Shown here piece after piece: positions 2,174 to 26,264 of a stretch of 64,000 nucleotides of DNA. The notes below the pieces were generated by a model. The model had not been told where the DNA came from. It did not search any database and saw nothing but the letters and a program-made list of their open reading frames with translations. Source of the DNA: Candidatus Omnitrophota bacterium (lineage in GTDB: Bacteria > Omnitrophota > Gorgyraeia > B26-G9); the NCBI GenBank assembly GCA_043805415.1, contig JAZDHZ010000043.1, positions 5,844 through 69,843 on the forward strand, written 5' to 3'. The stretch's first letter is position 1; each line of letters starts with the position of its first letter. The position numbers and the translations under genes were made by a program.

Positions 2174-3592
2174 ATGAAAAAAATAATAAAACAATTGGCA
2201 AAAAAGATTTTGCTTATTTTCTTGGGGATTATATTTGCTGGTTTAGCAATTGAGCTGAGCTTACAGGCTTTTATCTGTTTTTCGGGATTAGCAAATCAGT
2301 TTGATCAAAAAACAAGGTTCAATTGTAAAAAAGTAAAAATACTCTGTCTTGGTGATTCGTTTACCTACGGCATAGGCGCGGAAAAGGGATTTAGCTACCC
2401 TGAACAGCTGCAAGTAATGCTGAATGAAAAACAAAACCAGCAGGAATTTGAGGTTATTAATTGCGGGCAGCCCGGATTTAATACTGCTTTAATTGTCCAA
2501 AGAGCTTTGTCCCGGATTAAAGACTTAAACCCAAATATTTTAATTATCATGACTGGAGCTAATGATTATTGGAATTTATCAGGTTTGGGCAAGGATACTG
2601 GGAACATTTTACTAGAATTAAACTCTTTGCTGTATAATTTCCGTTCTTACCGTTTAATCCAGATCGGCATGTCTAAGCTGATTCAAAAAAATAATGTTTA
2701 TCAGACCGGCATTAATCAGCTAAGACACAAGCTAAAGCCAAAGGAGTTCGAACAAGCCTTGGAATTCTTGCGCTTTATTAAATATTTCCGGCATTTTAAA
2801 CTTTCCCATAACTATGAACAAGCCTTGATTGCTTTAGATCAGGCCTTAAACCTGCGTTATTTTGATCAGCATGTTTTTGAACTATTGGATGAATTGTTTA
2901 TTGATTGGCGGGATTTTTCCAAAGCAATCTGCTATTATGAAAGACTTAATCAGTTAAATCCGGATGATGGAAACGTTGATATTCGTCTGGCGAGAATGTA
3001 TAAAGCGGTTCAGGACTATGAAAAGTCGCTTACATTTTACAAAAAAGTTCATGCGCTTGATCCGGATTCAGCAGAAGCAGCTGCCGGAATAATTAATGCG
3101 GATAATTTTTTAAAACAAAAAATAAGCAAAAACTTTACGATCAATCCTGATGAGCATTCGCTGGTTTGCAAAAACAATTTTAATTTAAAAGATATTTTTA
3201 GTGAAAACCTGGAATTAGCCGATGAAGATTATGCTTTATTGCTGGATATGATTTTACTGGTACAGAGACCCCAATTTATCAAAGAGAATAAATACCGAAA
3301 ATCTTTAGAGCCTATTTATATGAATAAATTGAAGTTGCTTGCTGATTTATGCGAACAGAAAAAGCTAAAAGTTTTATTTTTAAGTTATCCTAACTTTGTA
3401 AGAGACTATGCGTATAAAGGTTTGAAAAACAAAAATACTGAATTTATTGACCTGAGAGATAAATTCGCCCAAATCGTAAATCCCAAAAACAGAAGCGAAT
3501 ATGAATCGCTTGACGCCCATTGCACAGCAAAAGGTTATCGCCTGATTGCCGATATTGTAAGTGAGCAGATAATTAAGGATTTAGTAAAATAA
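2174..3592 (+). CDS. SGNH/GDSL-type hydrolase domain protein with TPR repeats, N-terminal membrane anchor
   Basis: GDSFTYG block I motif and GANDYW block III-like motif of SGNH hydrolases; TPR-like helical repeats in middle (YYERLNQLNPDD..., YKKVHALDPDS). Confidence 0.55.
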   Translation: MKKIIKQLAKKILLIFLGIIFAGLAIELSLQAFICFSGLANQFDQKTRFNCKKVKILCLGDSFTYGIGAEKGFSYPEQLQVMLNEKQNQQEFEVINCGQPGFNTALIVQRALSRIKDLNPNILIIMTGANDYWNLSGLGKDTGNILLELNSLLYNFRSYRLIQIGMSKLIQKNNVYQTGINQLRHKLKPKEFEQALEFLRFIKYFRHFKLSHNYEQALIALDQALNLRYFDQHVFELLDELFIDWRDFSKAICYYERLNQLNPDDGNVDIRLARMYKAVQDYEKSLTFYKKVHALDPDSAEAAAGIINADNFLKQKISKNFTINPDEHSLVCKNNFNLKDIFSENLELADEDYALLLDMILLVQRPQFIKENKYRKSLEPIYMNKLKLLADLCEQKKLKVLFLSYPNFVRDYAYKGLKNKNTEFIDLRDKFAQIVNPKNRSEYESLDAHCTAKGYRLIADIVSEQIIKDLVK

Positions 3593-3671
3593 GCTGTAAC
3601 GATAAACTCTCTAAGCAGCTTACGGAAAATGATTTGTCAAGGGGTATATTTTTCAGGCGATGTCTTTTTTA

Positions 3672-3700
3672 TTGACGCACTGACAGCAAGGGAGTATTAT
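3672..3700 (+). promoter_or_regulatory. sigma70-like promoter (TTGACG - 17 bp - TATTAT)
   Basis: Near-consensus -35 and -10 hexamers with 17-bp spacer read directly in sequence; a perfect 8-bp-arm palindrome atatcagaTGGtctgatat lies at 3857-3878 just upstream of the next CDS. Confidence 0.4.
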
Positions 3701-3919
3701 TTATTTATCATAATTAAGTAAAAAAAGTCTCTAATACCACAGTGGAGCGGAAGATGAGGCTAAAAATATAATAATATAAAGGCAATTTCTAAGTAAAGGG
3801 ATTGCTTTTTTATTTAGAGCCTTTAGCCAGGATTAAACGCCGCTAAATATAGAAATCTTATAATATCAGATGGTCTGATATTATATTTTAGATAGAGCTA
3901 ATAGCCAAAGGAGATACAT

Positions 3920-4333
3920 ATGAAAACAAAAGCAGGTTTGTGGATTGACCATAAGAAAGCGATTGTTGTAGCGATTACAGATAAAGGCGAAGAAGCGATT
4001 GAAGTAATAATATCAGAAACAGGCAAACAGCCCCGCCGTTCTGGGGATTGCCCGCTTAAGGGTGACTATGAATCACAGCAAGCTCCGGAAAGTGATGTCC
4101 GCCAAAAAACTTTGACCGGACAGCTAAATGTTTATTATAATGAAATAATCGCCAGCATTCGGCAGGCAGAATCTATTCTGATATTTGGCCCGGGTGAAGC
4201 AAAAACTGAACTGAAAAAACGCCTTGAAAAAAGCAGCCTAGGCAAACGCATCGTAGGCGTTGAAACAGTTGATAAGCTGACGGATCATCAGATTGCGGCA
4301 AAAGTACGAAAATATTTTTCAGAAGAAGCTTAA
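3920..4333 (+). CDS. hypothetical protein (possibly host-attachment/baeRF-like fold)
   Basis: 137 aa, good RBS aaaggagat 8 nt upstream of ATG; weak resemblance to release-factor-like small proteins, not verifiable here. Confidence 0.35.
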   Translation: MKTKAGLWIDHKKAIVVAITDKGEEAIEVIISETGKQPRRSGDCPLKGDYESQQAPESDVRQKTLTGQLNVYYNEIIASIRQAESILIFGPGEAKTELKKRLEKSSLGKRIVGVETVDKLTDHQIAAKVRKYFSEEA

Positions 4334-4435
4334 CGAATAAATTAATTGAACGGATTTTTCAGCGGTTAAACTTATCTCAAAGATAGCTTATTTATTTTTT
4401 TATATTTAAGTATTTTAATCTTCGGAGGAAAGATT

Positions 4436-5515
4436 ATGAAACTTTTCAGCAAATTTAATTTAGGAAAACTGGAATTAAAAAACCGTATTGTCATGTCTCC
4501 GATGACCCGCTCCAGAGCCACGGCTGAGCATATACCTAATGAGCTGATGGTTGAATACTATAAACAAAGAGCCAGTGCCGGACTGATAATTACCGAAGGC
4601 ACTGCGCCTTCAGCTAATGGCACGGGTTATCCGCGGATTCCGGGAATTTATAATCCAGCCCAAATCCAAGGCTGGAAGAAAATTACCGATGCCGTGCATG
4701 CTAAACAAGGGAAAATGTTTTTACAGATGATGCATACCGGACGGGTTTCCCATCCTGAGAATATGCCCGCAGGCGCAAAGATTATCGCTCCATCGGCAAT
4801 TGGCCTAAATGGGCAGATTTATACTGATTCCAAAGGCTTGCAGAATTTTCCTGTACCGCGGGAAATGAGTATAGCGGATATTGAACAAGCGCAAAATGAA
4901 TTTGTCCAGGCAGCCAAGAACGCGATTAAGGCGGGTTTTGACGGAGTAGAAATCCATGGAGCCAATGGATATCTGATTGATCAATTTATTAATCCGGCAG
5001 CAAATCAGCGCAACGATAACTATGGAAACACTGTGGAAAACCGCTGCAGGTTTGCCATAGAAGTTGCCCAGAAAGTAGTCAAAGCCATTGGACAGGAAAA
5101 AACCGGCATGCGGCTTTCTCCTTATGGGGTATTCAATGATATGAGTATCTTTGATCAGATTGAACAGACTTATAAATATCTTGCTGATGCCCTGGGCAAA
5201 ATAAAATTAGTTTATATTCATCTGGTAGACCATTCTTCAATGGGATCACCGCAAGTACCTGAAGCTATTGTATCCAATATTCGTAAATTTTTTAAGGGTA
5301 ACATTATTGCTAGCGGAGGATTGGATAAAGAAAAAGCCGAAGCCATATTAAAAGCAGATAAAGCTGATTTAACGGCATTTGGCAGGGCTTTTCTGGCTAA
5401 TCCGGACTTAGTATATAAAATGCAAAATGATGTAGCTTTAAATAATCCTGATTATGATACATTCTATACCCCAGGTGAAAAAGGTTATACTGATTATCCT
5501 ATTTCAGCTAAATAA
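4436..5515 (+). CDS. Old Yellow Enzyme family NADH:flavin oxidoreductase (alkene reductase, NemA-like)
   Basis: NRIVMSPMTRSRA N-terminal OYE signature, HGANGYLIDQF active-site region, TIM-barrel length 359 aa. Confidence 0.8.
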   Translation: MKLFSKFNLGKLELKNRIVMSPMTRSRATAEHIPNELMVEYYKQRASAGLIITEGTAPSANGTGYPRIPGIYNPAQIQGWKKITDAVHAKQGKMFLQMMHTGRVSHPENMPAGAKIIAPSAIGLNGQIYTDSKGLQNFPVPREMSIADIEQAQNEFVQAAKNAIKAGFDGVEIHGANGYLIDQFINPAANQRNDNYGNTVENRCRFAIEVAQKVVKAIGQEKTGMRLSPYGVFNDMSIFDQIEQTYKYLADALGKIKLVYIHLVDHSSMGSPQVPEAIVSNIRKFFKGNIIASGGLDKEKAEAILKADKADLTAFGRAFLANPDLVYKMQNDVALNNPDYDTFYTPGEKGYTDYPISAK

Positions 5516-6078
5516 ATTTATCAAAAAAATAGATGATTTATTTTTTCGGCTTAAGTATAAAGACATCCGTATCTTATCTAATTAAAACAATCGCCTCTTT
5601 TTAAAAACATTATTTACCCAGCAAAACTTTTAAAAATCATGCTTAATTTGGCAAAATCATAATTATGTGATATAATTTAACTAAGATAAGAGTTTATAAA
5701 AGAATGAAATATGTGTTGAGGAAGAGGAAGGTAATTATTTAGTATTTTATATTTATAATAATTATTCTTAAATAACGCAATTGTTTAAACTTATACACCT
5801 GCCTCCTTACTCCTCAAAGTTTTTGGGAAATTGCATTTTTGTATTATGCTTAATTTTTCTAAACCTAAGCAAAGTGCAAGTCTTCGAAAAAAAGCGTTTA
5901 AAGAAATATCCGAAAAGGCAAACCTGTCGAAAGGCAGGGGCATTCTAGTGGAATAACTATAATCGTTAATTCGCTAGAATCCCTTAAAAGGTTTTTTAAG
6001 GGGCAAAGCTATGGATCTAAAGCATATGTGATGATCGCCTGGCTGACCGATAACGAGTTAACCTATATGCCAAGATTG

Positions 6079-6114
6079 CCAAGCTGCCGAATTATTAGCA
6101 GATTGGCTTTTTTT
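6079..6114 (+). terminator. orphan intrinsic terminator-like hairpin (ccaagctgc ... gcagattgg + T7)
   Basis: 9-bp stem with one mismatch followed by TTTTTTT; nearest upstream CDS ends 560 bp away, so it may end an unannotated small transcript. Confidence 0.35.
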
Positions 6115-6204: not shown

Positions 6205-9200
6205 ATGGATAAGCGAGCGCAATTAATTAAAATATGTTTAATTCTATATTGTCTTGAAGTTTTTATTCCGAATAGTATTTTTGCCCAACAATTGCCTGAG
6301 CAAACAGAGGCACAGACCGCTATTATTGAGGAATCATTCACTGATGGAAATGTGGAAACTCTGACCATTGCAGCTGACCCAGACACAATTCATTTGGAAT
6401 CAATGCTTTCTTCAGAGCAATTAGCGGAAACTTATGCGTATGCCTTTGACCTGCTTAATGACCAAGGCGCTGAGGATATAATTACTGCTTATCTTGAAAA
6501 TGGCTATAGTTTATCAGCTATTGGAGAAATCCTTAAAAATGCCAGCTTTTCTTTAGAAGATACTTTTAAGGCAATGGTTAATCATTTAGGGGAAGATTCC
6601 CTTGGGGAAATTATCGGAGCTCTGCTGGAAGCTAAATTTAAATCAGGGGATGTATTTAAAGTCGCGATAAATCACTTAAAGCAGGTAAGTCCTGAGCTTA
6701 CTGATAATCAAATTATTGAAAAAGTTTTGGGAACATCCGTAGATCCGGCTAATTTAAAAAGCTTGATGCAGGAGATTTTTATTGAAAAAATTTCCTCAGT
6801 AAGCGATCCGATTAAGTGCGATTTAGTTATAGCTATGATTGATTCGGGATTTAGCTTAAATGAAATAACTAGCGCATTAACTGAAAATGGTTTTAGTATT
6901 GATCAAATTGCTCAAATTTATAGTTTAGGCAGCATTGATATTGGTTTAACTTATGATCTATTGCTAAATACGCCGGGTTCGCAGGAAACGGATGTGATCA
7001 GAGCTTTACTTGCTTCATCTTACACTAAATCAGAAGTATTTGAGTGTATAGTCAATAAACTTTCTGGAACTAAAAGTGTTGAACAAATTGTGTCAACTAT
7101 CATGGGGCAGATTGATGTTGGCGGCCCAAGCGATGAACAATTAAACAATGCTATTGTTCTGTCTGGAGTATTACATGCTGGAGGAATAAGTATTTCTGAA
7201 ATAAGCGGAGCTTTTCTTTCCGCGGGATTTAATTTAGACAATGTTGTGGCTGTGCTTAACGGGATTGGAACTGCTCTGGATGATGCTTTTGCAACTTTGC
7301 TAGGCGCTAATGGCGGACAGAGTATTGCTGATGTGGCAGCAGCTTTAATCAGTAATGGATTTGATGTGCATGCTGTTTTCGCGCTAAGCACTGCAGAATT
7401 TAAAAACCAGGGAGTCGGCTTAACTCAGGTTGTCCAGGCACTTATTGGAACCATTGATCCTGAGAAAGGGCCGACTAAAAACCAGACAGATAATTCGCGG
7501 TTATTAGTAGATGTGTTGCTTAACGCAGATGACTCTTTACAGAACATAGCTGAAGCTTTTATTGCCAATGATTTTGGTTTGGAGAATACGGCTAAATTAT
7601 TTAAAAGCAATGGTGTATCAGCAGTGGATACTTATAATGCTTTAGTTGGGGCTACGGAAGGTGAATACGCGAGCGTAGCAGTGGCAATGACTACTATTGG
7701 TTTTACTGGCAGCATTGTTATTGAGCTTGCGGTAACAGATCTTAAGGCTCATGAATTCAGTAACGCGGATATTATGTCAATGCTAATTGGAACTGTAGAA
7801 GAAGGTAAAATTCCTACTAACCCTCAGATAACTATAGCGGGTTGCTTAACAAAAATTTTAATTGATCAGGGCGTTGCTTTGCCGGAAATCGGAGAAAATC
7901 TTATTAGCCAAGGCTTTAATTTAAATTATACAGCTAAAATATTTAAAAAAGCTGATGTTGATATCACTGAGGCATTTTCGGTTATGATTAAATTGGACGC
8001 CGAGGCAGGCTTTGATGTTGTATGCGCAGATTTGAAAGCCGCCGGCTACAGGGCCGCGGATATATTTAAAGAAGCGGTAACTGCCCTGCAGGAGCAAGGG
8101 CATGGTGTCAGTGAAATTATAAATATTTTAATCACTGCGGTTGATTCTGGAAAAAATGCTACAGGCGCGCAAATTAATAATGCTGGCGACTTGGTAAAGT
8201 ATTTAATTTCCGGGGGCAGCGCATCACAGGAAATTTGCGAAGGGCTCTTGGCTATTAATTTTTCTTTATCTGACATCGCGAAGGTAATGCGAAAAACAAG
8301 CGTAGAACTTGATGTTGTTTTTGCGGAAATCCTTGCTCTGGGTGGCGGGCAGGACATTGGTTTGGTTTCTGAGGCGCTTATTGCCGGAAGCTATGATCGT
8401 AATAGTGTTTTTCAAATAGCAATAGGAGAATTAAAAGCTCAAGATTACAGTACAGCCGCGATTATAAATACGCTAATCGGCGTGGTTGATCCCGAAGAAG
8501 GACAATCCGTTTATCAGAAAACTAATGCCCCATACTTGCTGCTGAGTTTATCTTTGGATGGGGGAAATTTAGAAGAAATCTGCGGCGGTTTTCTTAGTGC
8601 TGGTTTTAGTTTAGACGAAATAGCGTCAGCAACAAAAAAAGTCAACATTGATCTTATCCAAACCTATTCCGCGTTATTAAACGCGAATGGCGGTCAAGAT
8701 TCTGAAGCTGTGATTAACGCGCTTAATAATGCCGGATATGAAATATCGACCTTGTTCGAATTAATTGTTCCAGAGCTTCAGGGTAAGGATTACAGTACAG
8801 CGCAGATAATAACTTTCTTAATCGGCAATGTTAATCCAGTATCTGGACTTTCCGCTAAACAATTAGAAAGAGCGCATATTCTGGTTTATGTTCTAAGCGA
8901 AACAGGGGAATCTATAGAAAATATTTCCACAGCTATGGCTACTGCTGGATTTAAAGTCGAAGACAATGCGAAAATACTTTATCGGAAAATTGGAGATGCT
9001 GCTGAAGCCTACAATCTATTAACTAGTACTTACGGCCAAGAAAGTGTCACTACCATAGCTTTAGGAATGATTAATGCTGGATATGATATAGAATCTGTGC
9101 TCAATATAATTATTCCTATTTTCGAAGATCAAGAACTTTCCATGCCGGATATTATTAGCACAATTATCGGAGTAATCGCTTCAGAAAATAAGCCGACCTC

Positions 9201-11427
9201 TTTGCAGCTGAAACTGGCGGCAAAACTTACGGATATATTTACTGCTAAGGGAAATACTATTGAGGAAATTGCTCAGTGTTTATTTACTGTGGGAATTGGG
9301 CTGGATAATGTAGCGGTTATATTAAAAGCAAAAAGTACTGAGTTTGATAGTGCCTATAGCATTTTAACTAATCTTACCCAAGGGCAAAAACTTATGGATG
9401 TCGCATTTGCATTGATAAACAGCGGATTTGATAATGAAACAGTTGTCAGCACAGTTGTCGATGAACTTAAAATTCAGGGCAAGACTAATGCCGAAATTAT
9501 AAATCTTTTTATCGGAACTGTTGATCTTAAGAGCGGATTAACTGATACGCAGAAACAATGCGCATTGTCTTTAATAAAAAAATTGCGTGCTGAAGAAGGA
9601 GTATCCTTGTCAAGCATTTGCAATGACTTGGGCTCCACGGGATTAACTTTAGAAAAAATCCTTCCGCTTATGAAATCCGCGGAAATTAGTACAGAAGATA
9701 CTTTTAACGCGCTTTTAAGTTTTGACAAAGGACAAGATCCAGTGGAATTGGCAAATGTTTTAATGACTAATAATTATACGCATAAAGAAGTTTTTGAAGC
9801 ACTGGTAAATTATTTAGAGGGACTTGGTTCGGAATATAGTGTTAATAAGATAATTGAGATGGTAATCGGGGATATTGATGCTGAGAACGGATTAAGCGGG
9901 ATACAGCTGGGATACGCGCGTGATCTTGCTAATGCTTTTTTAGCAAATGATACTTCTTTAGAAGTCATTGCCACAGGATTTTTAAATCATGGGGTCACGC
10001 TTACAAATACCGTAATTATTTTAAAACTGGCTGAAGCGGAAGCAGAAGAAACTTACACGGCCCTGATGTCCGCATATGTGCCTAAGGAAGATGAAGTAGC
10101 GATTAGAGAGATAACATCAAAAATGATCAGCGCTGGGTACAGCTCTTTTACTGTTTATGCTTTTGCCGTTAAAAAGCTTGCTGATCAAGGGATCACTAAT
10201 GAAGTTGAAATAGTAGATATATTAATTGGACCGGTTAATTCCGAGGATTCCCAGCAACTTCGCAATGCCGGGAAACTATCGATGGTTATTAATTATAATA
10301 AAGCGATATTAACTGCCCAGAACACTGAGGAATCGTTTATTGTTTTATTTAAACAAGGATTTACCATAGAACAGATTACCCAGATGTTGAATGAAGGAGG
10401 AGTTAGCGACGAGCAAGTAAACGCGACCTTTTTGCAGGGATTTAGTGATATTGTTAAAGAATTAGTCAAATCAGGAATGAGCCCGGAGAGCATTGTTAAG
10501 TTACTTATTAATAAGGATAACAAACTAGATTATGTCCGGCCGCTTGCCGAACAGTTAAGACGCAATGATTTTGCCTCAACGGAAGTGCGCAGCGCTTTTT
10601 ATTCCATGCCTGGAGGCATGTACTCTTCGGATTGGGATCTTATCAGTAATGGTTTAGCAGATGCGGATGATTACCGGATTGAAAATACGCAAGAAGCTCA
10701 GACGATTAATTCGATGCTTAATGAAGGTCAGACTTTAACCGAGATTAGTCAGCATTTCGCGGAACAAGGATATCAGATGTCCTTTATCGGAAAACTGTTT
10801 AAAACTCTCGGACAATCAATTGAAGAAATATTTAATGCTTTGGATAATACTAAAACTTTTTATAGTGATGATCTTCTGGTTAATGATACTGCCGCTTCAA
10901 TTGTATTGCTAAAATATTATTCACACAAGGATGTTTTTACTTGCGCAACCCAATATTATAAGGAAAGGAACGTGAATTCTGAGGGGATTATTTTAAAGCT
11001 GATGAGTTCAGCGATTAAAGTTGATTCAACCAACGTTATCGCGGATACAATTGTAGGAGAGTATTACGCGTCTAAAGCCGATATTCAGACACAGTCTTTT
11101 GTAACTCTTATGGATGCTGGATATTCGGTTATTTGGATAAAAGACGCATTATTGAAAAAGAATTTTACTGCCGAAGCCATTGAAGCATTTATCCAAAATG
11201 GTGACAACTTTAAAGCGATATACCAGGGATTATCTGCCCAGGGATTTAGCGCCAGCAATATTGTTAAGCGTTTTGAAGTTGCGGAAAGCCCGGGAGAATA
11301 TACCGTACTCCTGGCTGAAAATATGATTAAAGATGGTCTCAGTGAAACGGAAGTAACCAGCATTCTTTTAAGTTATAAGGCTGATCCTGATTTAATAAAA
11401 CAAGGCATTGCCAGAGGATTAGCTTGA
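6205..11427 (+). CDS. giant secreted repeat protein (1740 aa), about 10 tandem ~140-aa alpha-helical modules
   Basis: N-terminal signal peptide (LIKICLILYCLEVFIPNSIFAQQ); recurring motifs GFSL(D/N)EI, NGGQDS..V(I/A)..AL...GY, ELK.QDYSTA.II..LIG.VDP..G repeated through the protein; uninterrupted 5.2-kb ORF with RBS gggggcaaaaaATG. Confidence 0.7.
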   Translation: MDKRAQLIKICLILYCLEVFIPNSIFAQQLPEQTEAQTAIIEESFTDGNVETLTIAADPDTIHLESMLSSEQLAETYAYAFDLLNDQGAEDIITAYLENGYSLSAIGEILKNASFSLEDTFKAMVNHLGEDSLGEIIGALLEAKFKSGDVFKVAINHLKQVSPELTDNQIIEKVLGTSVDPANLKSLMQEIFIEKISSVSDPIKCDLVIAMIDSGFSLNEITSALTENGFSIDQIAQIYSLGSIDIGLTYDLLLNTPGSQETDVIRALLASSYTKSEVFECIVNKLSGTKSVEQIVSTIMGQIDVGGPSDEQLNNAIVLSGVLHAGGISISEISGAFLSAGFNLDNVVAVLNGIGTALDDAFATLLGANGGQSIADVAAALISNGFDVHAVFALSTAEFKNQGVGLTQVVQALIGTIDPEKGPTKNQTDNSRLLVDVLLNADDSLQNIAEAFIANDFGLENTAKLFKSNGVSAVDTYNALVGATEGEYASVAVAMTTIGFTGSIVIELAVTDLKAHEFSNADIMSMLIGTVEEGKIPTNPQITIAGCLTKILIDQGVALPEIGENLISQGFNLNYTAKIFKKADVDITEAFSVMIKLDAEAGFDVVCADLKAAGYRAADIFKEAVTALQEQGHGVSEIINILITAVDSGKNATGAQINNAGDLVKYLISGGSASQEICEGLLAINFSLSDIAKVMRKTSVELDVVFAEILALGGGQDIGLVSEALIAGSYDRNSVFQIAIGELKAQDYSTAAIINTLIGVVDPEEGQSVYQKTNAPYLLLSLSLDGGNLEEICGGFLSAGFSLDEIASATKKVNIDLIQTYSALLNANGGQDSEAVINALNNAGYEISTLFELIVPELQGKDYSTAQIITFLIGNVNPVSGLSAKQLERAHILVYVLSETGESIENISTAMATAGFKVEDNAKILYRKIGDAAEAYNLLTSTYGQESVTTIALGMINAGYDIESVLNIIIPIFEDQELSMPDIISTIIGVIASENKPTSLQLKLAAKLTDIFTAKGNTIEEIAQCLFTVGIGLDNVAVILKAKSTEFDSAYSILTNLTQGQKLMDVAFALINSGFDNETVVSTVVDELKIQGKTNAEIINLFIGTVDLKSGLTDTQKQCALSLIKKLRAEEGVSLSSICNDLGSTGLTLEKILPLMKSAEISTEDTFNALLSFDKGQDPVELANVLMTNNYTHKEVFEALVNYLEGLGSEYSVNKIIEMVIGDIDAENGLSGIQLGYARDLANAFLANDTSLEVIATGFLNHGVTLTNTVIILKLAEAEAEETYTALMSAYVPKEDEVAIREITSKMISAGYSSFTVYAFAVKKLADQGITNEVEIVDILIGPVNSEDSQQLRNAGKLSMVINYNKAILTAQNTEESFIVLFKQGFTIEQITQMLNEGGVSDEQVNATFLQGFSDIVKELVKSGMSPESIVKLLINKDNKLDYVRPLAEQLRRNDFASTEVRSAFYSMPGGMYSSDWDLISNGLADADDYRIENTQEAQTINSMLNEGQTLTEISQHFAEQGYQMSFIGKLFKTLGQSIEEIFNALDNTKTFYSDDLLVNDTAASIVLLKYYSHKDVFTCATQYYKERNVNSEGIILKLMSSAIKVDSTNVIADTIVGEYYASKADIQTQSFVTLMDAGYSVIWIKDALLKKNFTAEAIEAFIQNGDNFKAIYQGLSAQGFSASNIVKRFEVAESPGEYTVLLAENMIKDGLSETEVTSILLSYKADPDLIKQGIARGLA

Positions 11428-11610
11428 TCAGAGACTAAACTGATTATTTAGCAATAAATCTATAGTGTATAAACAAAAATAAAAAAAGGAGCATTTTTTA
11501 ATGACTCCTTTTTTTATTGCTTTATCTAATAATTAAAACTGGATTTACTGAACAACAGATTGACAGCTATTTAGACACCTCAAAAAAAATCACTCTTAAA
11601 CATTAAAATG

Positions 11611-11639
11611 TTGAAATTGATAAATATTTTACATATAAT
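11611..11639 (+). promoter_or_regulatory. sigma70-like promoter for tRNA-Ala (TTGAAA - 17 bp - TATAAT)
   Basis: Consensus-like hexamers 17 nt upstream of mature tRNA 5-prime end. Confidence 0.4.
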
Positions 11640-11655
11640 GAGTTAGAAACTTATC

Positions 11656-11731
11656 GGGGCAGTGGCTCAGCTGGGAGAGCACCACGTTCGCAACGTGGGG
11701 GTCGTGAGTTCGAATCTCATCTGCTCCACCA
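11656..11731 (+). tRNA. tRNA-Ala (anticodon CGC)
   Basis: Cloverleaf folds by eye: 7-bp acceptor stem with G3:U70 Ala identity pair, anticodon loop TTCGCAA, T-loop GTTCGAATC, encoded CCA. Confidence 0.85.
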
Positions 11732-11737
11732 TATAAA

Positions 11738-11769
11738 AGAGGCTATTTTTACAATAGTCTCTTTTTTTT
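11738..11769 (+). terminator. rho-independent terminator after tRNA-Ala
   Basis: agaggctatt / aatagtctct stem (one mismatch) followed by T8. Confidence 0.5.
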
Positions 11770-12022
11770 ACGTCGATAAAGCAAGAAAAAGCTCACGGAT
11801 GCTCTACTAAAATAAGAACTTCTCAATTACTACCAATTTATATCAATTATGCTGTATTTTGCTGGATTATAGTCATTATTTAGTCACTAGTCACCAGTAT
11901 GTATGATGCTCAGGAAGCTTAATTATTAGGCTATTTAATTTTTACTCAGGTATATATGGCGAATCAGCTAAAAACAGGGTATACTTAATTGTTTTTAATA
12001 AACCAATATAAAATAGAATGAT

Positions 12023-12793
12023 ATGTCTAAAAAAATTATACTTACATTAATAAATTCAGTTCTAATTCTATTGCTATTTGGCATCTATGCGTTTGCTAAA
12101 AATCAAATTGTTTTAGATGTTTTATCTCCAAAGCTTAATTTAGAAAAAATCTCTTTTGAAAAATATATGTTAAAAGACCGAGTAAAACTGCTTGCCACTT
12201 TAAAGGTTTACACTCAGGAGATTGAGAATCCTTACCAAGTCTTAGGGAGGGTCACGCATCGAATTATGATGAATGATGAGAACTTAATAATCAGGGAACA
12301 AGTTAAAAAGGACGGAATGACAAGAGAAGTACATAATTCTTTATTACGGATCCTAGATGATGGGACTGAGCAGTTATTAGGACAATGTTGGTATAAGATT
12401 AATAGAAACGACGCGATTTTAGCTGGAGATGCTTCTAATATGCGTCTGCCAGCTTTTAAGATCAAGGAAGAAGGAAAGGGCTATGGTACTGTTCTTTTTG
12501 CCGCAGTATTAGAAAGTGCCAGAAATTATGATGTAACATCCTTTACTGTAAACATTGCGCTAACTTCAATATATGAACGTTTTGGATTTAGAGAGGTGGA
12601 ATATGGAATCCTTGATGAATTATATAGAATAATAAACCCAGAAGATCCCTCTTTTTTTAATACTGCAATTGATTTAGCGAAAGAACGGGGTATTACAGTG
12701 AGTTTTACCCTTCAAGAACTACCTTTCTCAGAAAAACCAGTTTTTGCACGATCAATTATCGGACTAGAAAAACCCTTCGCTCAATCAATTTAA
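12023..12793 (+). CDS. membrane-anchored protein with C-terminal GNAT-like acetyltransferase fold
   Basis: N-terminal TM helix; C-terminal EGKGYGTVL...YERFGFREVE resembles GNAT motif A/B; located between tRNA-Ala and tRNA-fragment repeats. Confidence 0.45.
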   Translation: MSKKIILTLINSVLILLLFGIYAFAKNQIVLDVLSPKLNLEKISFEKYMLKDRVKLLATLKVYTQEIENPYQVLGRVTHRIMMNDENLIIREQVKKDGMTREVHNSLLRILDDGTEQLLGQCWYKINRNDAILAGDASNMRLPAFKIKEEGKGYGTVLFAAVLESARNYDVTSFTVNIALTSIYERFGFREVEYGILDELYRIINPEDPSFFNTAIDLAKERGITVSFTLQELPFSEKPVFARSIIGLEKPFAQSI

Positions 12794-13028
12794 TCATCCA
12801 GACATTGCCGCTGTTAAAATACTATCTATTATACTGCCACTAGTTAACAAAAAAATGTTAATTAATATTTTTTAACGAAAAATAAACAAATTTTTCCCTT
12901 AGCTGATATCAAAATCAAGGAAAACAGTTCCTGGGATATCCAGGTCTATAATAAAAAATTGTTTAAAAAAGTCCTATTTGAAAGTTCTTTGGGTTTGGGT
13001 GAATCATATTTTCTTGCCGGAATTCATT

Positions 13029-13062
13029 GCGGGAGGGACGTGAATTTGAATCCAATCTGATC
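13029..13062 (+). repeat. degenerate copy of tRNA-Ala 3-prime half (T-arm + acceptor), putative att remnant
   Basis: gggagggacgtgaatttgaatccaatctgatc aligns base-for-base with gtgggggtcgtgagttcgaatctcatctgctcc of the intact tRNA-Ala at 11698-11730. Confidence 0.5.
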
Positions 13063-13107
13063 TATTCTGGAAATTAATTTTAAAAACAAAAATTGAATAA
13101 TATGAAA

Positions 13108-13587
13108 TTAACTAGTTTTACTTTCTGCTTCTGATTCAAACGCGAAAAAATGATTAAGCAGGGCCTTATACCATTCATCCTGTAAATCATATTTTGCTAT
13201 TTTAATACTAAATTTCAATGTTTCTATAGCTACTTCCGCTTTAAATAACACTTCATTATTTTTATTAATTTCAACATACGGAGTTATTCCTTTGCCGCAG
13301 CCGTAGACAATAAAGTAGATGTCGTATTTACTCCGATATGAAAATTTATGCACTGTTTTATAACCACTATTAGTTTTTTCAGCCCAAACATCTTTTCGCT
13401 CAATAGTCCTATAACTCCAGTCCTTTTCCGCATTGCCTTTGCCAACAAAACCCTCGGCAGCATTTAATTCATCTTGTATGGTTTTTAGGACTCTATAAAT
13501 TTTTAACGCGATTGTACAATCCATTTCTAGCTTTTTTTCTAAATTCTTATCATCCTGCTGTCTTGAGTTTAAATTTTCATCTGGCAT
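13108..13587 (-). CDS. hypothetical protein (159 aa), only minus-strand gene in this stretch
   Basis: ORF track; bracketed by the two tRNA-Ala fragment repeats; no recognisable family. Confidence 0.4.
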   Translation of the reverse strand: MPDENLNSRQQDDKNLEKKLEMDCTIALKIYRVLKTIQDELNAAEGFVGKGNAEKDWSYRTIERKDVWAEKTNSGYKTVHKFSYRSKYDIYFIVYGCGKGITPYVEINKNNEVLFKAEVAIETLKFSIKIAKYDLQDEWYKALLNHFFAFESEAESKTS

Positions 13588-13940
13588 ATAACACCCTTTA
13601 ATTAGTAAAACAATAATTAGATTTAATTAATATATGATACACGAATTAATCCTGTCAATCTAAAGCTATATAGAATCTTCAATTAGGCAAACAAAAACCA
13701 TAGCAATCAGAAAACTTACCTGCCTAATATCCCTTTTTTTATTGACAACTGATAGTAAATATTAGCTGTGACCAAATAAGAAAAGTTTTTATTTAATAAT
13801 AGGCATTATTTAAACACTATCTGCAAAAACCCAATCCTAACAAAATAATTGAAGTTTTATAACTAGAATCATATTATATTTGTACCTGGATAAAAAATCA
13901 ACACTTTTTATTGACGGATTCCATTCGCGAGGTGGGGGCG

Positions 13941-13984
13941 CGCGGGTCGAATCCGATCTGCTCGATTATCAGGAAATTAATTAA
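13941..13984 (+). repeat. second degenerate tRNA-Ala fragment (anticodon arm through acceptor 3-prime strand), putative att remnant
   Basis: ccattcgcgaggtgggggcgcgcgggtcgaatccgatctgctcg parallels cacgttcgcaacgtgggggtcgtgagttcgaatctcatctgctcc; followed by aggaaattaatt shared with fragment 1. Confidence 0.5.
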
Positions 13985-14245
13985 AAATACAAATCAAATG
14001 ATTTTTTTTATAAAACTTTTGAATGCTTTTGCGTTTAGGTATACAATATTAATGTCAGATGAAGCTGATCCTGAATCTGAAGAAAATAAAGCAGTGAAGA
14101 ATCGGTTAAAGGCAAATAGAATAATAAAAATTAATTAAAAATTTCATGAAGCCAGTCGAGATAAATGATCTTAATGGTTTTAATCAGTTTCTGTTGAGTT
14201 CTGTCCATCCGGCAGACGCGTTTAGAAATACCCTCAATAGTTTAT

Positions 14246-14687
14246 TTGATATTTCTAATCAGCAAAAGGAGGCAAGTAATGGCTAAAAAAACAATCAGAA
14301 TATCCCAGCTGGAGGAGCATAGTGATGAGCGGGGTGTTAGCTTTTCCGTTCCCGCGGCGAATCTAAGTTATATTAAGAAAATCAATAATATGCATTTTGC
14401 CACGATTATGCCCGGGGCTGTTCGCGGCAATCATTATCATGAACAAAAGAAAGAATGTCTTTTGGTCATATATTCTGATGCTTGGATTTTTAGTTATCAG
14501 GAAAAAAAAAGCAAAGCAGCCGATGTTTAAACATTTTGAAGGTCAATCAGGAGTTGTGATTGAGGTTGATCCGGGGGTAGCGCATGGGCTTAAAAATACA
14601 GGCACTAAACCGCTGATTGTCGGGGTATTTTCCAATAAAGCAAATGATCTGAATAATCCTGACAATATTAGTAAAATCGTGGTATAA
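14246..14687 (+). pseudogene. cupin-fold protein (sugar ketoisomerase/WxcM-like?) interrupted by +1 frameshift in an A9 tract
   Basis: Two overlapping ORFs (14246-14530 and 14397-14687); cupin motifs RGNHYHEQKKE (frame 1) and GVAHGLKNTGTKPLIV (frame 2) join across aaaaaaaaa at 14502-14510. Confidence 0.5.
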
Positions 14688-14696
14688 TATTTTGAA

Positions 14697-15383
14697 ATGA
14701 AAAACTTTATTTTAAATAATCTAATCATATTGTTTATCCAAATTCTTTTTGTCACCGCGGTGTACGCGGAAGTCGGTATCGGCAGTACCCGGCAAGAGGT
14801 TATCAGTGCTTTTGGTGAGCCTTCGGGAATAATGACTAGCGGCCAGGAAGAAATTCTCAGCTATCCGGGCGGGATGATTGTGATCTTTGACGGCAAAGTT
14901 AGTAATATGGATAAGGATTTTGGCAAACGTTTAGAATCGCGTAAAGAAGAAACAGAATTCAGCGCTCAGCAGCAGGAAAAAGGATTAGTTGAGCACTTAG
15001 GCCAATGGGTAACACCCGCGGAAAAACAAAAAGCGGAAAGTCGAAAAAACCTTAGCCAGCAGATAATGATTTTTTCCAATGGCGGCGCGGAAATAACTGT
15101 TGATCAGATTCTTGTGCCAGGTAAAATAACCTTGCTTGATTTTTATGCTGATTGGTGCGCGCCTTGCAAACAACTCTCGCCTTATCTTGAAAAGCTGGCG
15201 AATAGTGATAAAGATGTTTATCTGCGTAAAGTTAATATTGTTAAATGGGGAACTCCGGTAACTAAACAATTTTCTATAAACAGTGTTCCTGATGTGCGGG
15301 TATTTGACCGCTATGGCCGCATGGTCGGCAGACCAACATATGATTTTAATGAAATTCTATCCTATGTAAAACGCTCCAAATAA
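14697..15383 (+). CDS. secreted thioredoxin-fold protein
   Basis: N-terminal signal peptide; WCAPCK CxxC active site inside thioredoxin-like segment DFYADWCAPCKQL. Confidence 0.7.
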   Translation: MKNFILNNLIILFIQILFVTAVYAEVGIGSTRQEVISAFGEPSGIMTSGQEEILSYPGGMIVIFDGKVSNMDKDFGKRLESRKEETEFSAQQQEKGLVEHLGQWVTPAEKQKAESRKNLSQQIMIFSNGGAEITVDQILVPGKITLLDFYADWCAPCKQLSPYLEKLANSDKDVYLRKVNIVKWGTPVTKQFSINSVPDVRVFDRYGRMVGRPTYDFNEILSYVKRSK

Positions 15384-15722: not shown

Positions 15723-17375
15723 ATGAATATAAATATGCTTTTATTAACCGGAATATCTATATTTTTAGGGACTTTTGGCGGTAAGTTATTTCAAAAATTC
15801 AAAATCCCTCAGGTTGTTGGCTATATAGTAGTCGGGGTTATAATGGGCCAATCAGTTTTAGGCATATTAGATGCCAAGACTATTGAAATGTTTACTCCCT
15901 TAATAAATATAGCCTTAGGGATTATCGGCTTTAGAATCGGGGCTGAATTAAAAGCCGAAGTTTTTAAGAAATACGGCCGTTCGATTTACATGATTTTGTT
16001 TGGGGAAGGGATATTAGCCTTTATTGTGGTTGCGGTATTAGTTACCTTGGTCACAAAAAAGCTGTATTTAGGACTGCTTTTAGGGGCAATTGCCTCAGCA
16101 ACCGCGCCGGCTGCTACTACTGATGTGCTTTGGGAATATAAAGCAAGAGGGCCTTTGACCACAACCCTGTTCGCGATTGTTGCCTTAGACGATGCTTTGG
16201 CACTGATCATCTACGGATTTGCCAGCGTTTTTGCCAAATCAATGCTAGCGCATGCTGATTTCTCTTTTTTTCAAAGCGTGCTAATCCCAATTTTTGATTT
16301 AATTAAATCCTGTCTGATCGGCGCTGGTTGCGGATTCGCGCTTTCCGCACTTTTGCGTCGGATTAAAGATAAAGAACTGATGTTTTCTTTTTCACTTGCC
16401 TTTATTATCTTTACTGTAGGCTTGGCGATATTTTTTCAGCTTGATTTTATATTATCCGCAATGACCTTAGGCGCGGTGTTTGCTAATATCTCTCCCCAGA
16501 TCAGCCGAAAAGTATTTGATACTATTGAATCTTTTAGCCCTCCGATATATGTGATCTTTTTTATTCTTGTTGGCGCGCGTTTGCAAGCCAAGTTATTTCT
16601 AAACGCAAGTATCGCTTTATTGGCAATTGTGTATTTAATCGGCAGAACTTCAGGTAAAATGGCCGGCGCTTATTTGGGCGGTTTTTTTTCCAAAGCACAC
16701 AAGATGGTAACTAAATATTTAGGTTTATGCCTTTTTTCTCAAGCCGGGGTAGCTATTGGTTTAGCAATGGTGGTTTATCACAATTTCAGTTTATTAGGCC
16801 CGGAAGGAGAAAAGGTCGGATTGCTTGTCTTGAATATAATCACGGCCACTACTTTTGTGGTGCAGTTAGTTGGTCCAGCTTGCGTTAAGTTTGCCATAAC
16901 CAAGGCGGATGAAGTCTGGCGCAATGTAAATGAAGAGGATGTAATCGAATCCAGTACTGTCAGTGATTTTATGCGCAAAGATTTTACATTTGTAAAAGAA
17001 AATGCCAGCTTAGACAAGATAATGCGAGCAATTAAAGAAAGAGAGTCATATCACTTTCCGGTGGTTGATAATCAAGGAGAATTAACCGGATTAATATCTT
17101 TGGGAAATTTAAGAAATATATTTGGAGAAGAACAGCTGGGTAATGTTATTTTAGCCAGGGATTTGGCTGAACCTGTACGAAAAGTGCTTTATCCTAACCA
17201 GCCGTTAAAAGAAGCCTTTGAAATCTTTCAAAAAAGAGAAATCGAGTATTTGCCGGTGGTGAAAAATGAAAACTCTAAGGAGATTGTGGGAATAGTCGAA
17301 TACCAGGGATTGGTTGATACGGTAAATCGAAAAACTTTGGAACGCCAAGAAAGTTTGGATAAAAAACATAGCTAA
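15723..17375 (+). CDS. cation:proton antiporter (CPA family) with C-terminal CBS domain pair
   Basis: About 12 predicted TM helices in first 400 aa; C-terminal tandem CBS-like segments (VSDFMRKDF...ISLGNLRN; ILARDLAEP...). Confidence 0.7.
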   Translation: MNINMLLLTGISIFLGTFGGKLFQKFKIPQVVGYIVVGVIMGQSVLGILDAKTIEMFTPLINIALGIIGFRIGAELKAEVFKKYGRSIYMILFGEGILAFIVVAVLVTLVTKKLYLGLLLGAIASATAPAATTDVLWEYKARGPLTTTLFAIVALDDALALIIYGFASVFAKSMLAHADFSFFQSVLIPIFDLIKSCLIGAGCGFALSALLRRIKDKELMFSFSLAFIIFTVGLAIFFQLDFILSAMTLGAVFANISPQISRKVFDTIESFSPPIYVIFFILVGARLQAKLFLNASIALLAIVYLIGRTSGKMAGAYLGGFFSKAHKMVTKYLGLCLFSQAGVAIGLAMVVYHNFSLLGPEGEKVGLLVLNIITATTFVVQLVGPACVKFAITKADEVWRNVNEEDVIESSTVSDFMRKDFTFVKENASLDKIMRAIKERESYHFPVVDNQGELTGLISLGNLRNIFGEEQLGNVILARDLAEPVRKVLYPNQPLKEAFEIFQKREIEYLPVVKNENSKEIVGIVEYQGLVDTVNRKTLERQESLDKKHS

Positions 17376-24257: not shown

Positions 24258-26264
24258 TTAATAATTTTCCTGCCAATTAATAAACGAAATTCCGGCAATA
24301 AAATCCGGAGGAGGATCCGGCACCATTTTTGGCACATAGCGCATATCAAGCTCTTTTCTAAGAAAAATATCATTGGCAACAATGCAGCCTTCAAGCTTGA
24401 AAGTTTCCAGATCAACAATCCCGTTTTCGGAAAATATTATTCCGTCAAAATCCCGATCCCGCGGATCTTCCACACCGGTTTCAGTAATATTGCCATCCTT
24501 GGTAATTAAAGTAGGATATTGCGGCCGCCATCTTCTAAAATAAACTCTGCCGCCGGCAGGAGTTATGACTTCTCCGGCGCGCAAGACCATGGTCTGATAG
24601 CTTTGCGCGCCGGCAAAAAAAGTAATATTAAATATCGAATTATCCATGTCGCGATTGCCCATTCCCCAAGTGAAGTTACGGAAATTATTAATCTGCATAT
24701 CAGCATATTGACCAGGAGCTATAGTGATTGTCGGACTAAAGGAAACAATTTGTCCGTCAGAAGCCCGGCCCGATGGCGGCGGATAACTCCAGTTGGTGGT
24801 AAATCCAGCTTGTCCCTGAACCTGGCTTCTCACTTCTTCATAAGCTCCGAGAAATGAAACCAGGGAAGCCCAGGACGCGGACATCGCGGTTATGGTAATC
24901 GGAGCAGTTGTATTGTTCTTGATTTGAAATTCCACATCACTGTTGGTATTAGCTTGTCTGGTAAGTTCAATATAATCCAGGCCAGAGGGGCGATATTCAT
25001 TGATAATATCGATTCCGCCAACAGCGGTAATCATGCATTGGGGAAAATTAAGATTTTTATAATAAGTATTAATTGTCGCTTTACCAGTTATATAATAACT
25101 TTCCCATAAATAATAAGCAGTGCTGGAAAAATCAAAATCAACAAACTTATCATAGCCATTAAATACAAAGTCGCCGTCAACAAATTTAGTTGCCCGGTTC
25201 CGGTAGGCCAGCATATCAACTGAAGGCATACTGACCAAAGGATCTCCCAAAGAACCCTGAGTAATATCACCGTCAATTTCTAAAGCATCAGCCGCGGGAC
25301 TGGAAGCAAGTCCCACGCTTACTGGATAAAAAGTTGATCCATCAGAAAAAGTCACATTAAAAGTAGTATTATCCATATCGCGGCGCGGATTAGAATTACC
25401 GCTAAGTCTACTGCTAAAAGTTTCTAAACGAATCTCAGCAGTAGCCATATTGGCAATAAACACTGGTTCAGTAAAGTTAACAGTTTCTCCGCTGGCAGCC
25501 CGGTTGCCGCCATTATCATAGAGGTCCCAGACACTTCCATAGTTTGTTCCACTGTACACTCTAACCCGGACTTCACTATAATAAGCAGTTGGGCTAGTCC
25601 AGGTGGCAGTTAATTGAGTAAGATTTAATGTTGCTCCGGTTTCATTAGTAACTTCAAAATTTACATTTGAATTAGAGTTCTGATCTCTGGACCCATCAAC
25701 ATAATACAACCCTGATTTAACCCCTATTCCCAATACTGAATTATTGGCGTGAATATCACCTTCTAAACTGCCTGTAGCAGTATCCGCAAAAGTAATATTA
25801 GTATTAGACATTAAGAGAAATTTCCAGGCGCATAAATAAACAATTGCCTCAGTGGTCCGCTGGGCATTGCCGACATAACCAGTGGAAATAATCCGGACAA
25901 AATCCTCACCAATATCTACTGCCTCAGCAACTGTAACAATGTAATAACCATCAGTCATGTTTTCCTGATATGACCAAGGCATGGTATCAACGTTGGGAGT
26001 TTCGACGATTAAGCGCATTGCCCGGTCAATTCCGGCTTCAGCCACAAAAAAAGCTTTTTCTCCGTTTTCCTGATTGCGGGCAATGCCGCTTTCACTAAGC
26101 ATAGTAGACAGGTAAGTGGTACTAAGCATAAATAGCACTACCATGACAATCAAGGCAAGGAGCAAAGCAATGCCTTTGTCTTGTCTTTTTTTAGATTTAA
26201 TGATTATATTTTTATTTACATTTTGATCTAACATCTTGTCCTTATTAATTAAAATCCTACTCAA
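24258..26264 (-). CDS. large pilus-associated protein with PilX-like N-terminal segment and internal tandem duplication
   Basis: N-terminal KGIALLLALIVMVVLFMLSTTYLSTMLSESGIA resembles PilX_N; two homologous segments (…RRDMDNTTFNVTFSDGSTFYP… vs …NRDMDNSIFNITFFAGAQSYQ…); sits downstream of pseudopilins. Confidence 0.45.
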   Translation of the reverse strand: MSRILINKDKMLDQNVNKNIIIKSKKRQDKGIALLLALIVMVVLFMLSTTYLSTMLSESGIARNQENGEKAFFVAEAGIDRAMRLIVETPNVDTMPWSYQENMTDGYYIVTVAEAVDIGEDFVRIISTGYVGNAQRTTEAIVYLCAWKFLLMSNTNITFADTATGSLEGDIHANNSVLGIGVKSGLYYVDGSRDQNSNSNVNFEVTNETGATLNLTQLTATWTSPTAYYSEVRVRVYSGTNYGSVWDLYDNGGNRAASGETVNFTEPVFIANMATAEIRLETFSSRLSGNSNPRRDMDNTTFNVTFSDGSTFYPVSVGLASSPAADALEIDGDITQGSLGDPLVSMPSVDMLAYRNRATKFVDGDFVFNGYDKFVDFDFSSTAYYLWESYYITGKATINTYYKNLNFPQCMITAVGGIDIINEYRPSGLDYIELTRQANTNSDVEFQIKNNTTAPITITAMSASWASLVSFLGAYEEVRSQVQGQAGFTTNWSYPPPSGRASDGQIVSFSPTITIAPGQYADMQINNFRNFTWGMGNRDMDNSIFNITFFAGAQSYQTMVLRAGEVITPAGGRVYFRRWRPQYPTLITKDGNITETGVEDPRDRDFDGIIFSENGIVDLETFKLEGCIVANDIFLRKELDMRYVPKMVPDPPPDFIAGISFINWQENY

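Follow-up and report, generated by a model that had tools for sequence, protein, structure and literature searches.

Degenerate tRNA-derived repeats in a hypervariable islet at tRNA-Ala(CGC) of a Candidatus Omnitrophota genome, probably left by tRNA-targeted integration

In a metagenome-assembled genome of Candidatus Omnitrophota, the tRNA-Ala(CGC) gene is followed by a short islet in which two direct repeats carry degenerate copies of the 3' half of that tRNA. We analysed the islet within a 64-kb stretch of DNA, here called the window, which belongs to an 83.7-kb contig and consists mostly of plus-strand housekeeping genes (type IV pilus, glycosyltransferases, DnaE, HisRS, GuaA and others). 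The GC content is 27-33% across the islet (11800-14200) compared to 36-44% in its flanks. The only two open reading frames (ORFs) in the islet are annotated by NCBI as V1747_09945 (256 aa) and V1747_09950 (159 aa), and the features are collected in Table 1. The repeats, a related junction in a second genome and the differing gene content of relatives suggest that this is a decayed genomic islet built by a family of elements that targeted the tRNA gene, a reading to which we give a probability of about 0.6.

Table 1. Features of the islet and its borders, in window positions
Feature	Position	Strand	Basis
tRNA-Ala(CGC), intact, presumed integration target (attL side)	11656-11731	+	ARAGORN; Rfam tRNA model, 64.4 bits
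Terminator hairpin and T-tract right after tRNA-Ala	11735-11773	+	terminator scan, 13-pair stem
Motif M (TATCAATTATGCTGTATTTTGCTGGATTATAGTCATTATTTAG), last conserved block 3' of the tRNA	11814-11887	+	blastn, 100% over 49 nt to L194 4562-4610
256-aa secreted protein, weakly GNAT-like, segment 1 cargo	12023-12793	+	ORF list
Repeat copy 1	13009-13090	+	left arm 13009-13026, tRNA-like core ~13027-13062, right flank 13063-13090
159-aa orphan ORF, segment 2 cargo	13108-13587	-	ORF list
Promoter-like site of the orphan gene (TTGACA, 18-nt spacer, TATATT)	13629-13658	-	11/12 matches, consensus only
Repeat copy 2	13906-13993	+	left arm 13906-13923, tRNA core 13924-13965, right flank 13966-13993
OLD/GajA-like ATPase-nuclease 3' remnant (pseudogene)	13995-14283	+	tblastn, L190 607-aa query
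Cupin (Polysacc_synt_C / WxcM-like) gene, frameshifted; right conserved border	14279-14687	+	PF14667 positions 12-52 and 53-110, in different frames
Thioredoxin-family gene, anchor for finding relatives	14697-15383	+	Pfam Thioredoxin 5.4e-14; orthologues 73-83%

Two repeat units built around the 3' half of tRNA-Ala

The islet has an intact tRNA gene (tDNA) at one end, as expected of the target of a tDNA island. Both ARAGORN and Rfam placed it where an earlier reading of the letters alone, the sequence-only reading, had seen it. The 3' half of this tRNA (11682-11731) was aligned by the Smith-Waterman method against 11732-14700, with 200 shuffles as the null. The two top matches were at 13924-13963 (score 33) and 13035-13062 (score 26), while the best shuffle scored 25. 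The first begins with the anticodon loop, TTCGC, and aligns to positions 6-45 of the tRNA 3' half; the second aligns to positions 18-45. Both fragments lie on the plus strand, in direct orientation, and are restricted to the 3' part of the tRNA. They are thus cognate displaced fragments of the kind that pairs with the target in a tDNA island, and both are degenerate (~75% identical to the tRNA over the aligned stretches). Two degenerate copies of the tRNA 3' half had been claimed at these sites from the letters, and the alignment places them above chance. For copy 2, given as 13941-13984, the site was correct and the start was not, as the tRNA homology runs from 13924.

The likeness between the two copies is wider than their tRNA-like cores. 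Local alignment of the copy 1 unit with the copy 2 unit, using 500 shuffles as the null, gave a score of 47 over 13009-13090 and 13906-13993 compared to a null maximum of 25 (nhmmer E = 6e-5). Each ~85-nt unit opens with ~18-25 nt of non-tRNA left arm, continues with the tRNA-like core and closes with a right flank of ~25-30 nt. The left arm has the consensus TTTTnTTGMCGGAWTYCA (TTTTCTTGCCGGAATTCA in copy 1 and TTTTATTGACGGATTCCA in copy 2), and the right flank common to both copies reads ATT[CA]T..GGAAATTAATT..AAA.ACAAA. The sequence-only reading had described the common right-hand extension, which holds, and had overlooked the left arm.

The core of copy 2 retains CGC in the anticodon loop TTCGCGA and is ungapped through to the discriminator base; copy 1 is recognisably tRNA-like from the variable loop on. 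The copies are ~70% identical to each other and have derived states in common with respect to the tRNA (GAATCC[AG]ATCTG against GAATCTCATCTG). Shared derived states together with two shared flanks argue for descent from one unit rather than for two displacements of the present tRNA half. Judged by their sequence, copies 1 and 2 are duplicates of one ~85-nt unit.

In a search with Rfam at E up to 10, neither the tRNA clan (RF00005) nor any other family was matched by either copy. The T-stem pairing, as read from the alignment, is broken in both, with 2/5 pairs kept in copy 1 and 3/5 in copy 2. On the plus strand, the units fold no better than shuffles (z-scores of +0.68 and -0.68 for copies 1 and 2, respectively, with no shared fold), and folding on both strands did not reveal a stable structure in common. 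Together, these results mark the copies as relics rather than functional tRNA-like RNAs. Two T-stem pairs of copy 2 are changed on both sides with pairing kept (G:C to C:G and A:T to G:C; chance ~0.1), which weakly hints that its 3' half may come from a different functional tRNA-Ala allele.

An attR-type junction in a second genome and a hypervariable locus

For comparison we used five informative Omnitrophota contigs, found via the flanking genes and homologues of the 256-aa protein. Their thioredoxin proteins are 82% (L188), 73% (L082/L081), 80% (L086), 83% (L190) and 73% (L194) identical to that of the window, too distant for a clean comparison of empty and occupied sites. A metagenome scan with the thioredoxin protein returned L086 as the sole close relative. 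Exact-sequence lookup of the 256-aa and 159-aa proteins in assemblies gave no record. In a scan of the genome collection anchored on the Na+/H+ exchanger, none of 80 loci matched 11400-14700 at the DNA or translated level, and the copy motif was absent from all 80.

The unit was found again in one relative, L194, a 10.5-kb contig that lacks an intact tRNA. Its positions 895-1082 read ATTTTTATTGCCGGAATTCA, then a tRNA-Ala 3' half, then the canonical terminator and motif M. The likeness to the tRNA starts at the anticodon loop, as it does in copy 2, and identity to the window tRNA is confined to the last 23 nt, from the T-loop to the 3' end. Using nhmmer, copy 2 matched L194 at 895-968 (E = 3e-6) and copy 1 at 902-971 (E = 5e-4), in both cases with the non-tRNA left arm included. 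A foreign arm, a displaced tRNA 3' part and the native downstream flank, in this order, have the structure of an attR junction. This junction is best explained by an element family that targets tRNA-Ala(CGC), and its occurrence in a second genome is the strongest support for such a family. Further copies of the unit were sought in the window and in 190 fetched loci, and none was found except that in L194.

Several weaker candidates were discarded. A possible orthologue of copy 1 in L082 (TCGTGAGTTgCGAATC, 3734-3749, p about 0.02) was not supported by alignment of the whole unit and is a weak hint only. Possible further relics in the window at 11904-11925, 13560-13583 (p = 0.04) and 14128-14142 were non-significant or of low complexity. 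The second of these, where the orphan ORF has its 5' end, weakly resembles the tRNA 3' half, and the third is a reappearance, within the OLD-like remnant, of the 15-mer AAATTAATTAAAAAT from the right flank of copy 2; both are probably AT-rich coincidences. An 18-mer resembling the left arm at 24286-24303 is a chance match in a pilX-like coding sequence, with no tRNA-like sequence following it. Scans of viral contigs returned 21 matches to a copy-2 17-mer, all of them by chance and in coding sequence, 24 chance matches to a left-arm 16-mer and, for the tRNA 3' 23-mer, one unrelated phage tRNA-Ala(UGC).

The ~140 nt 3' of tRNA-Ala are conserved in L082, L188 and L194, and the terminator belongs to this block (L082 1-196, L188 6389-6537, L194 925-1082), which ends in motif M. 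The motif occurs once in the window and three times in L194, where one further copy lies at 1525-1598; it was also found in L082 (about 150-196) and L086 (764-798). Over 49 nt it is 100% identical to L194 even though the thioredoxin genes are only 73% (protein) and about 74% (DNA) identical. In each relative that has motif M, variable DNA begins directly past it (~11887 in the window). No conserved RNA fold was found for the motif on either strand. A ~440-nt insert interrupts the tRNA-downstream block of L194 (1050-1598) and has direct repeats of local sequence (CAGAA(A)ACAACTGCGCAATTACTA) on both sides, making it a further small insertion bounded by duplications at this locus.

Between this block and the cupin-thioredoxin pair, the window and each of the five relatives differ in gene content, and the tRNA-Ala locus is therefore a hypervariable islet. 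L188 shares its upstream backbone with the window (an FAD-dependent protein, a GDSL lipase and an old yellow enzyme, OYE). Directly after the OYE gene it has a tRNA identical to the tRNA-Ala(CGC) of the window (6399-6474) and the terminator (92% over 150 nt), followed by a 264-aa gene, a DUF4135 gene, cupin and thioredoxin. L082/L081 starts with the 3' part of tRNA-Ala at the contig edge, and the conserved downstream sequence runs on for ~190 nt. Next come an 836-aa PMT_2/TPR gene, an orthologue of the 256-aa protein with its promoter, three further genes, cupin and thioredoxin. L086 keeps motif M, lacks a recognisable tRNA and continues with a PEP-CTERM-like gene and small Cys-rich genes. L190 has a 607-aa OLD/GajA-like nuclease gene immediately upstream of cupin, and L194 has five further genes in the interval. 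The arrangement of tRNA fragments seen in the window occurs in none of the five relatives, which does not point to an ancestral, conserved feature.

A further related sequence, L001, has a degenerate full-length tRNA-Ala-like sequence (3401-3473) immediately upstream of the thioredoxin gene, at the syntenic place. It has an anticodon loop TTAGCAA, a T-loop of ~3 nt and the end CTCCACCA, and is called by neither ARAGORN nor Rfam. With permissive thresholds, Rfam found only the window tRNA in the window segment, L086 and L001. This clade may be able to dispense with tRNA-Ala(CGC). A 6-kb block on the opposite side of the tRNA represents either an insertion in the window or a deletion in L188, where OYE adjoins tRNA-Ala. 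In this block, a c-di-GMP-I riboswitch at 5907-6091 of the window (41.6 bits, above the gathering score) precedes the gene for a 1740-aa repetitive secreted protein (6205-11427).

Proposed formation of the islet and alternative explanations

We propose that elements of one family carry an attachment (att) site composed of the left arm TTTTnTTGMCGGAWTYCA and a copy of the tRNA 3' part. Such elements would enter within the tRNA gene by site-specific recombination; tRNA similarity reaches leftward as far as the anticodon stem-loop. With each integration the tRNA would be restored and the old 3' half, now joined to the left arm of the element, would be displaced to the far end, where it would persist as an attR scar. 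Copies 1 and 2 would be two such scars, bounding a 1.3-kb segment with the gene for the GNAT-like secreted protein and a 0.9-kb segment with the 159-aa orphan. In the simplest version, one old scar lay 3' of the GNAT-like gene and the 0.9-kb orphan cassette later entered it, duplicating the unit. This entry could have taken place by site-specific recombination at a secondary att site or by a single crossover through the ~85 nt of homology. The recombinase and any transfer genes would have been lost, or would act in trans.

The shared flanks of the scars, and the fact that each is the closest likeness of the other, make entry of the orphan cassette through an existing scar most likely, rather than a separate hit on the tRNA. 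We infer a tyrosine integrase as the maker of the junctions and, likewise, the order of events. The sequence-only reading had proposed successive integrations into the tRNA gene. The tRNA origin of the copies, their direct orientation, their restriction to the 3' half and the attR-type junction of L194 agree with that proposal, while two independent hits on the tRNA, and the age order that these would give, find no support.

Several observations weigh against this reconstruction. No recombinase, tyrosine (PF00589) or serine, is encoded by the ORFs of the interval or among 40 window ORFs scanned across the 64 kb, and genome, metagenome and three viral scans did not yield a complete integrase-bearing element of this family. 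The segments, at 0.9-1.3 kb, are well below the typical size of islands. The intact tRNA precedes the canonical downstream block, as it does in relatives, and not the right flank of the copies, so that a textbook attL-E2-attR2-E1-attR1 array would need extra assumptions. Such an array also fits poorly with variable DNA that begins only past motif M and with scars that have both flanks in common. Synteny with L082 takes in the GNAT-like gene and its promoter, while the distal orphan segment occurs only in the window; serial insertion at the tRNA would be expected to give the opposite age order. The perfect block of L194 spans only the T-loop to the 3' end, leaving the crossover at either the anticodon loop or the T-loop, and the relatives are distant (73-83% amino-acid identity in thioredoxin). 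Sublocation classes of tDNA are said to go back to Williams in 2002.

An alternative that we regard as unlikely is that cassettes were swapped by homologous recombination without a dedicated integrase, the tRNA fragments being old passengers rather than active att sites. Conserved local blocks would serve for the exchange, on the left the tRNA-downstream block together with motif M, on the right the OLD-like remnant and the cupin gene. A single crossover with a circular or linear fragment bearing the 85-nt unit would have duplicated it. Both flanks are shared over ~85 nt, as from a Campbell-type crossover, and genomes part from each other where conserved blocks end, with breakpoints at motif M (~11887) and the OLD-like remnant (~13995). 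The perfect conservation of motif M beside a 73% thioredoxin, its three occurrences in L194 and the lack of an integrase among the window ORFs fit this explanation as well. However, it leaves unexplained why a tRNA 3' half is fused to a specific non-tRNA arm in two genomes. In addition, with copies ~70% identical any such event is old and indistinguishable from a site-specific insertion.

It is less likely still that local duplications of the tRNA-Ala region, without any mobile element, left the copies behind as pseudo-tRNA relics that have decayed since. The apparent dispensability of tRNA-Ala(CGC), its degenerate, T-loop-deleted counterpart in L001 and the lack of a recognisable tRNA beside motif M of L086 would be in keeping with pseudogenes of this tRNA. 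Such duplication does not account for the missing 5' half of both copies, which start at the anticodon stem-loop, or for the common non-tRNA left arm that is present in L194 too, and neither the tRNA terminator nor motif M was copied along. Most improbable is a function for the units as structured RNA or DNA elements with no more than a resemblance to tRNA (tRNA-like processing signals, terminators or integron attC-like sites): in copy 2, CGGATTC...GAATCCG can pair into a hairpin whose inner stem is GC-rich (-22 kcal/mol), but the folds differ between copies and are no better than shuffles, no Rfam family matches, the T-stem pairing is broken and, in the window and 190 fetched loci, the unit does not recur beyond L194.

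The integration reading has close parallels among characterised systems. Islander defines a tDNA island by a regenerated tDNA paired with a displaced fragment, with repeats giving tandem arrays; its counts include 3' fragments in 3760/3919 islands, 2083 anticodon-centred sites and 125 tandem arrays (PMC4383910). As in the islands described by Hudson, Lau and Williams (2015, PMC4383910), an intact tRNA is followed here by 3' fragments in direct orientation, the interval is AT-rich, content varies among relatives and tandem arrays are known. The start of the similarity on the anticodon side would fit too, with the crossover at either the anticodon loop or the T-loop. Unlike in those islands, the intervals and the scanned window ORFs lack an integrase, and the intervals measure 0.9-1.3 kb rather than many kb. 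Moreover, the fragments are ~70-75% identical to the tRNA and have shared flanks that the tRNA lacks.

Decayed, integrase-less cis-mobilizable elements (CIMEs) bounded by att sites, and accretion at those sites, are documented (PMC5704250). For CIMEs of streptococcal integrative elements, both conjugative (ICEs) and mobilizable (IMEs), that review refers tandem accretion to Pavlovic 2004 and Bellanger 2011. The islet resembles CIMEs in keeping attL/attR-type repeats, the tRNA and the units at 13009-13090 and 13906-13993 bounding both segments, with recombinase and transfer genes missing, and CIME att sites accept new elements to give tandem structures. It differs in showing no sign of derivation from an ICE or IME and in having degenerate att-like scars.

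Small single-gene units, each with a similar ~85-nt repeat and with cargo that differs between genomes, also recall integron cassette arrays. In contrast to these, the islet has neither IntI nor attI, and its repeats are tRNA-derived without the imperfect-palindrome structure of attC. The orphan gene lies on the opposite strand with its own promoter. The scan of the 40 window ORFs found no integron integrase, and the units have no significant fold in common (+0.68, -0.68), so the islet does not qualify as an integron.

Overall, the mechanism proposed is a textbook one and the finding is modest: the islet adds one more case, from a phylum that has been little studied, to a kind of feature that is well known. 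Omnitrophota are known almost wholly from metagenome-assembled genomes. To our knowledge, almost no mobile elements have been described for them, and we know of no related functional element in the phylum. The islet would document tRNA-targeted integration and islet decay in Omnitrophota, and its att signature (TTTTnTTGMCGGAWTYCA plus the tRNA-Ala 3' half) can be used to search for integrase-bearing elements.

Cargo, decay and terminal motifs of the locus proteins

The sequence-only reading had held that the islet lacks integrase, excisionase and transposase ORFs, which the scan of the interval and window ORFs bore out. The integrase that tDNA islands carry within their interval is missing, since the 256-aa and 159-aa ORFs are the only ones present and neither contains a recombinase domain. 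No transfer genes were found in the islet.

The 256-aa protein combines a signal peptide with an LSPKLNL motif and ends in QSI. Against Pfam, three GNAT families matched residues 150-193 with E values of 1.5e-3 to 7.6e-3 and 17-19 bits, below their cut-offs of 20.7-27, and the matches are limited to the acetyl-CoA-binding segment. The family comprises 6 representative clusters among 1.84 billion proteins, and the L082 orthologue lies at the same position (2853-3623). The description of segment 1 as carrying a membrane-anchored GNAT-like gene was thus correct as to the ORF; the GNAT similarity is sub-threshold, and the hydrophobic N-terminus looks more like a signal peptide than an anchor.

Segment 2 carries a minus-strand orphan, as predicted. 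The 159-aa protein matched only itself among 5.8 billion proteins, and searches of Pfam, PHROG, PADLOC, NCBIfam and PDB sequences were all empty. By our own arithmetic, a frame of this length has a probability of ~2e-6 in DNA of 30% GC, suggesting that it is, or recently was, a gene. AlphaFold2 models of the 256-aa and 159-aa proteins reached pLDDT values of 56 and 52, respectively, and Foldseek found zero matches to either model in the PDB at or below 1e-3.

Neither product can be recognised as a toxin or defence protein, and the suggestion that the islet might hold such cargo found no convincing match in either ORF. Defence-type genes at this locus are limited to the OLD/GajA-like remnant immediately to the right of copy 2. 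It matches residues 506-559 and 564-607 of the 607-aa L190 protein with 52% and 68% identity, and that protein in turn matches the PADLOC models Old (1e-20) and GajA (3.5e-15). The gene is intact in L190, is reduced to a shorter remnant in L188 and is represented in L082 by only its first ~56 nt at the DNA level. The segment 14000-14055, considered as a conserved cupin promoter, is part of this remnant. In the window, the cupin gene is split by its frameshift into two overlapping ORFs, and it is intact at 135-136 aa in L082, L086, L188, L190 and L194; the frameshift reflects either a pseudogene or an assembly error. The scars, the OLD/GajA-like gene and the cupin gene all indicate that the islet is decaying.

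Proteins of the locus that are not homologous to each other share two terminal motifs, L-[SA]-P-x-[LIV]-x-[LIV] behind a signal peptide and x-S-I (mostly QSI) at the C-terminus. The carriers are encoded at 12023-12793 in the window, at 3809-4528 in L082, at 6610-7404, 7790-9184 and 10823-11677 in L188, at 3011-4384 and 4770-5939 in L194, and at 3855-4676 and 4695-5555 in L081. Among ORFs of the related sequences, 12/204 end in [QF][SA]I, where ~0.2 would be expected by chance. In an all-against-all BLASTP comparison, the motif-bearing proteins fall in several unrelated families, and distant members of the GNAT-like family retain both motifs. From their sequence, the motifs may represent a lineage-specific sorting or processing signal. 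They hold more potential than the tRNA finding, as they may indicate a sorting signal that has not been described.

A speculative extension, which we consider a long shot, is that the tRNA-Ala locus serves as a cassette platform on which ~1-3-kb integrase-less units are swapped by an unlinked recombinase. The units would be bounded by a tRNA-Ala-derived att site with the left arm and/or by motif M, and their cargo would be mostly unrelated secreted proteins with L-[SA]-P-x-[LIV]-x-[LIV] and an x-S-I tail. Such a platform would be a tRNA-based analogue of an integron that supplies a lineage-specific sorting pathway.

On the 3' side of thioredoxin, relatives have one or two copies of a gene for a 273-286-aa LSP...QSI protein (L188 10823-11677, L190 3056-3910, L081 3855-5555), which carries a frameshift in both L194 and L001. 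In the window, its place is taken by a Na+/H+ exchanger-CBS gene (15723-17375), indicating that the right side of the locus is variable too.

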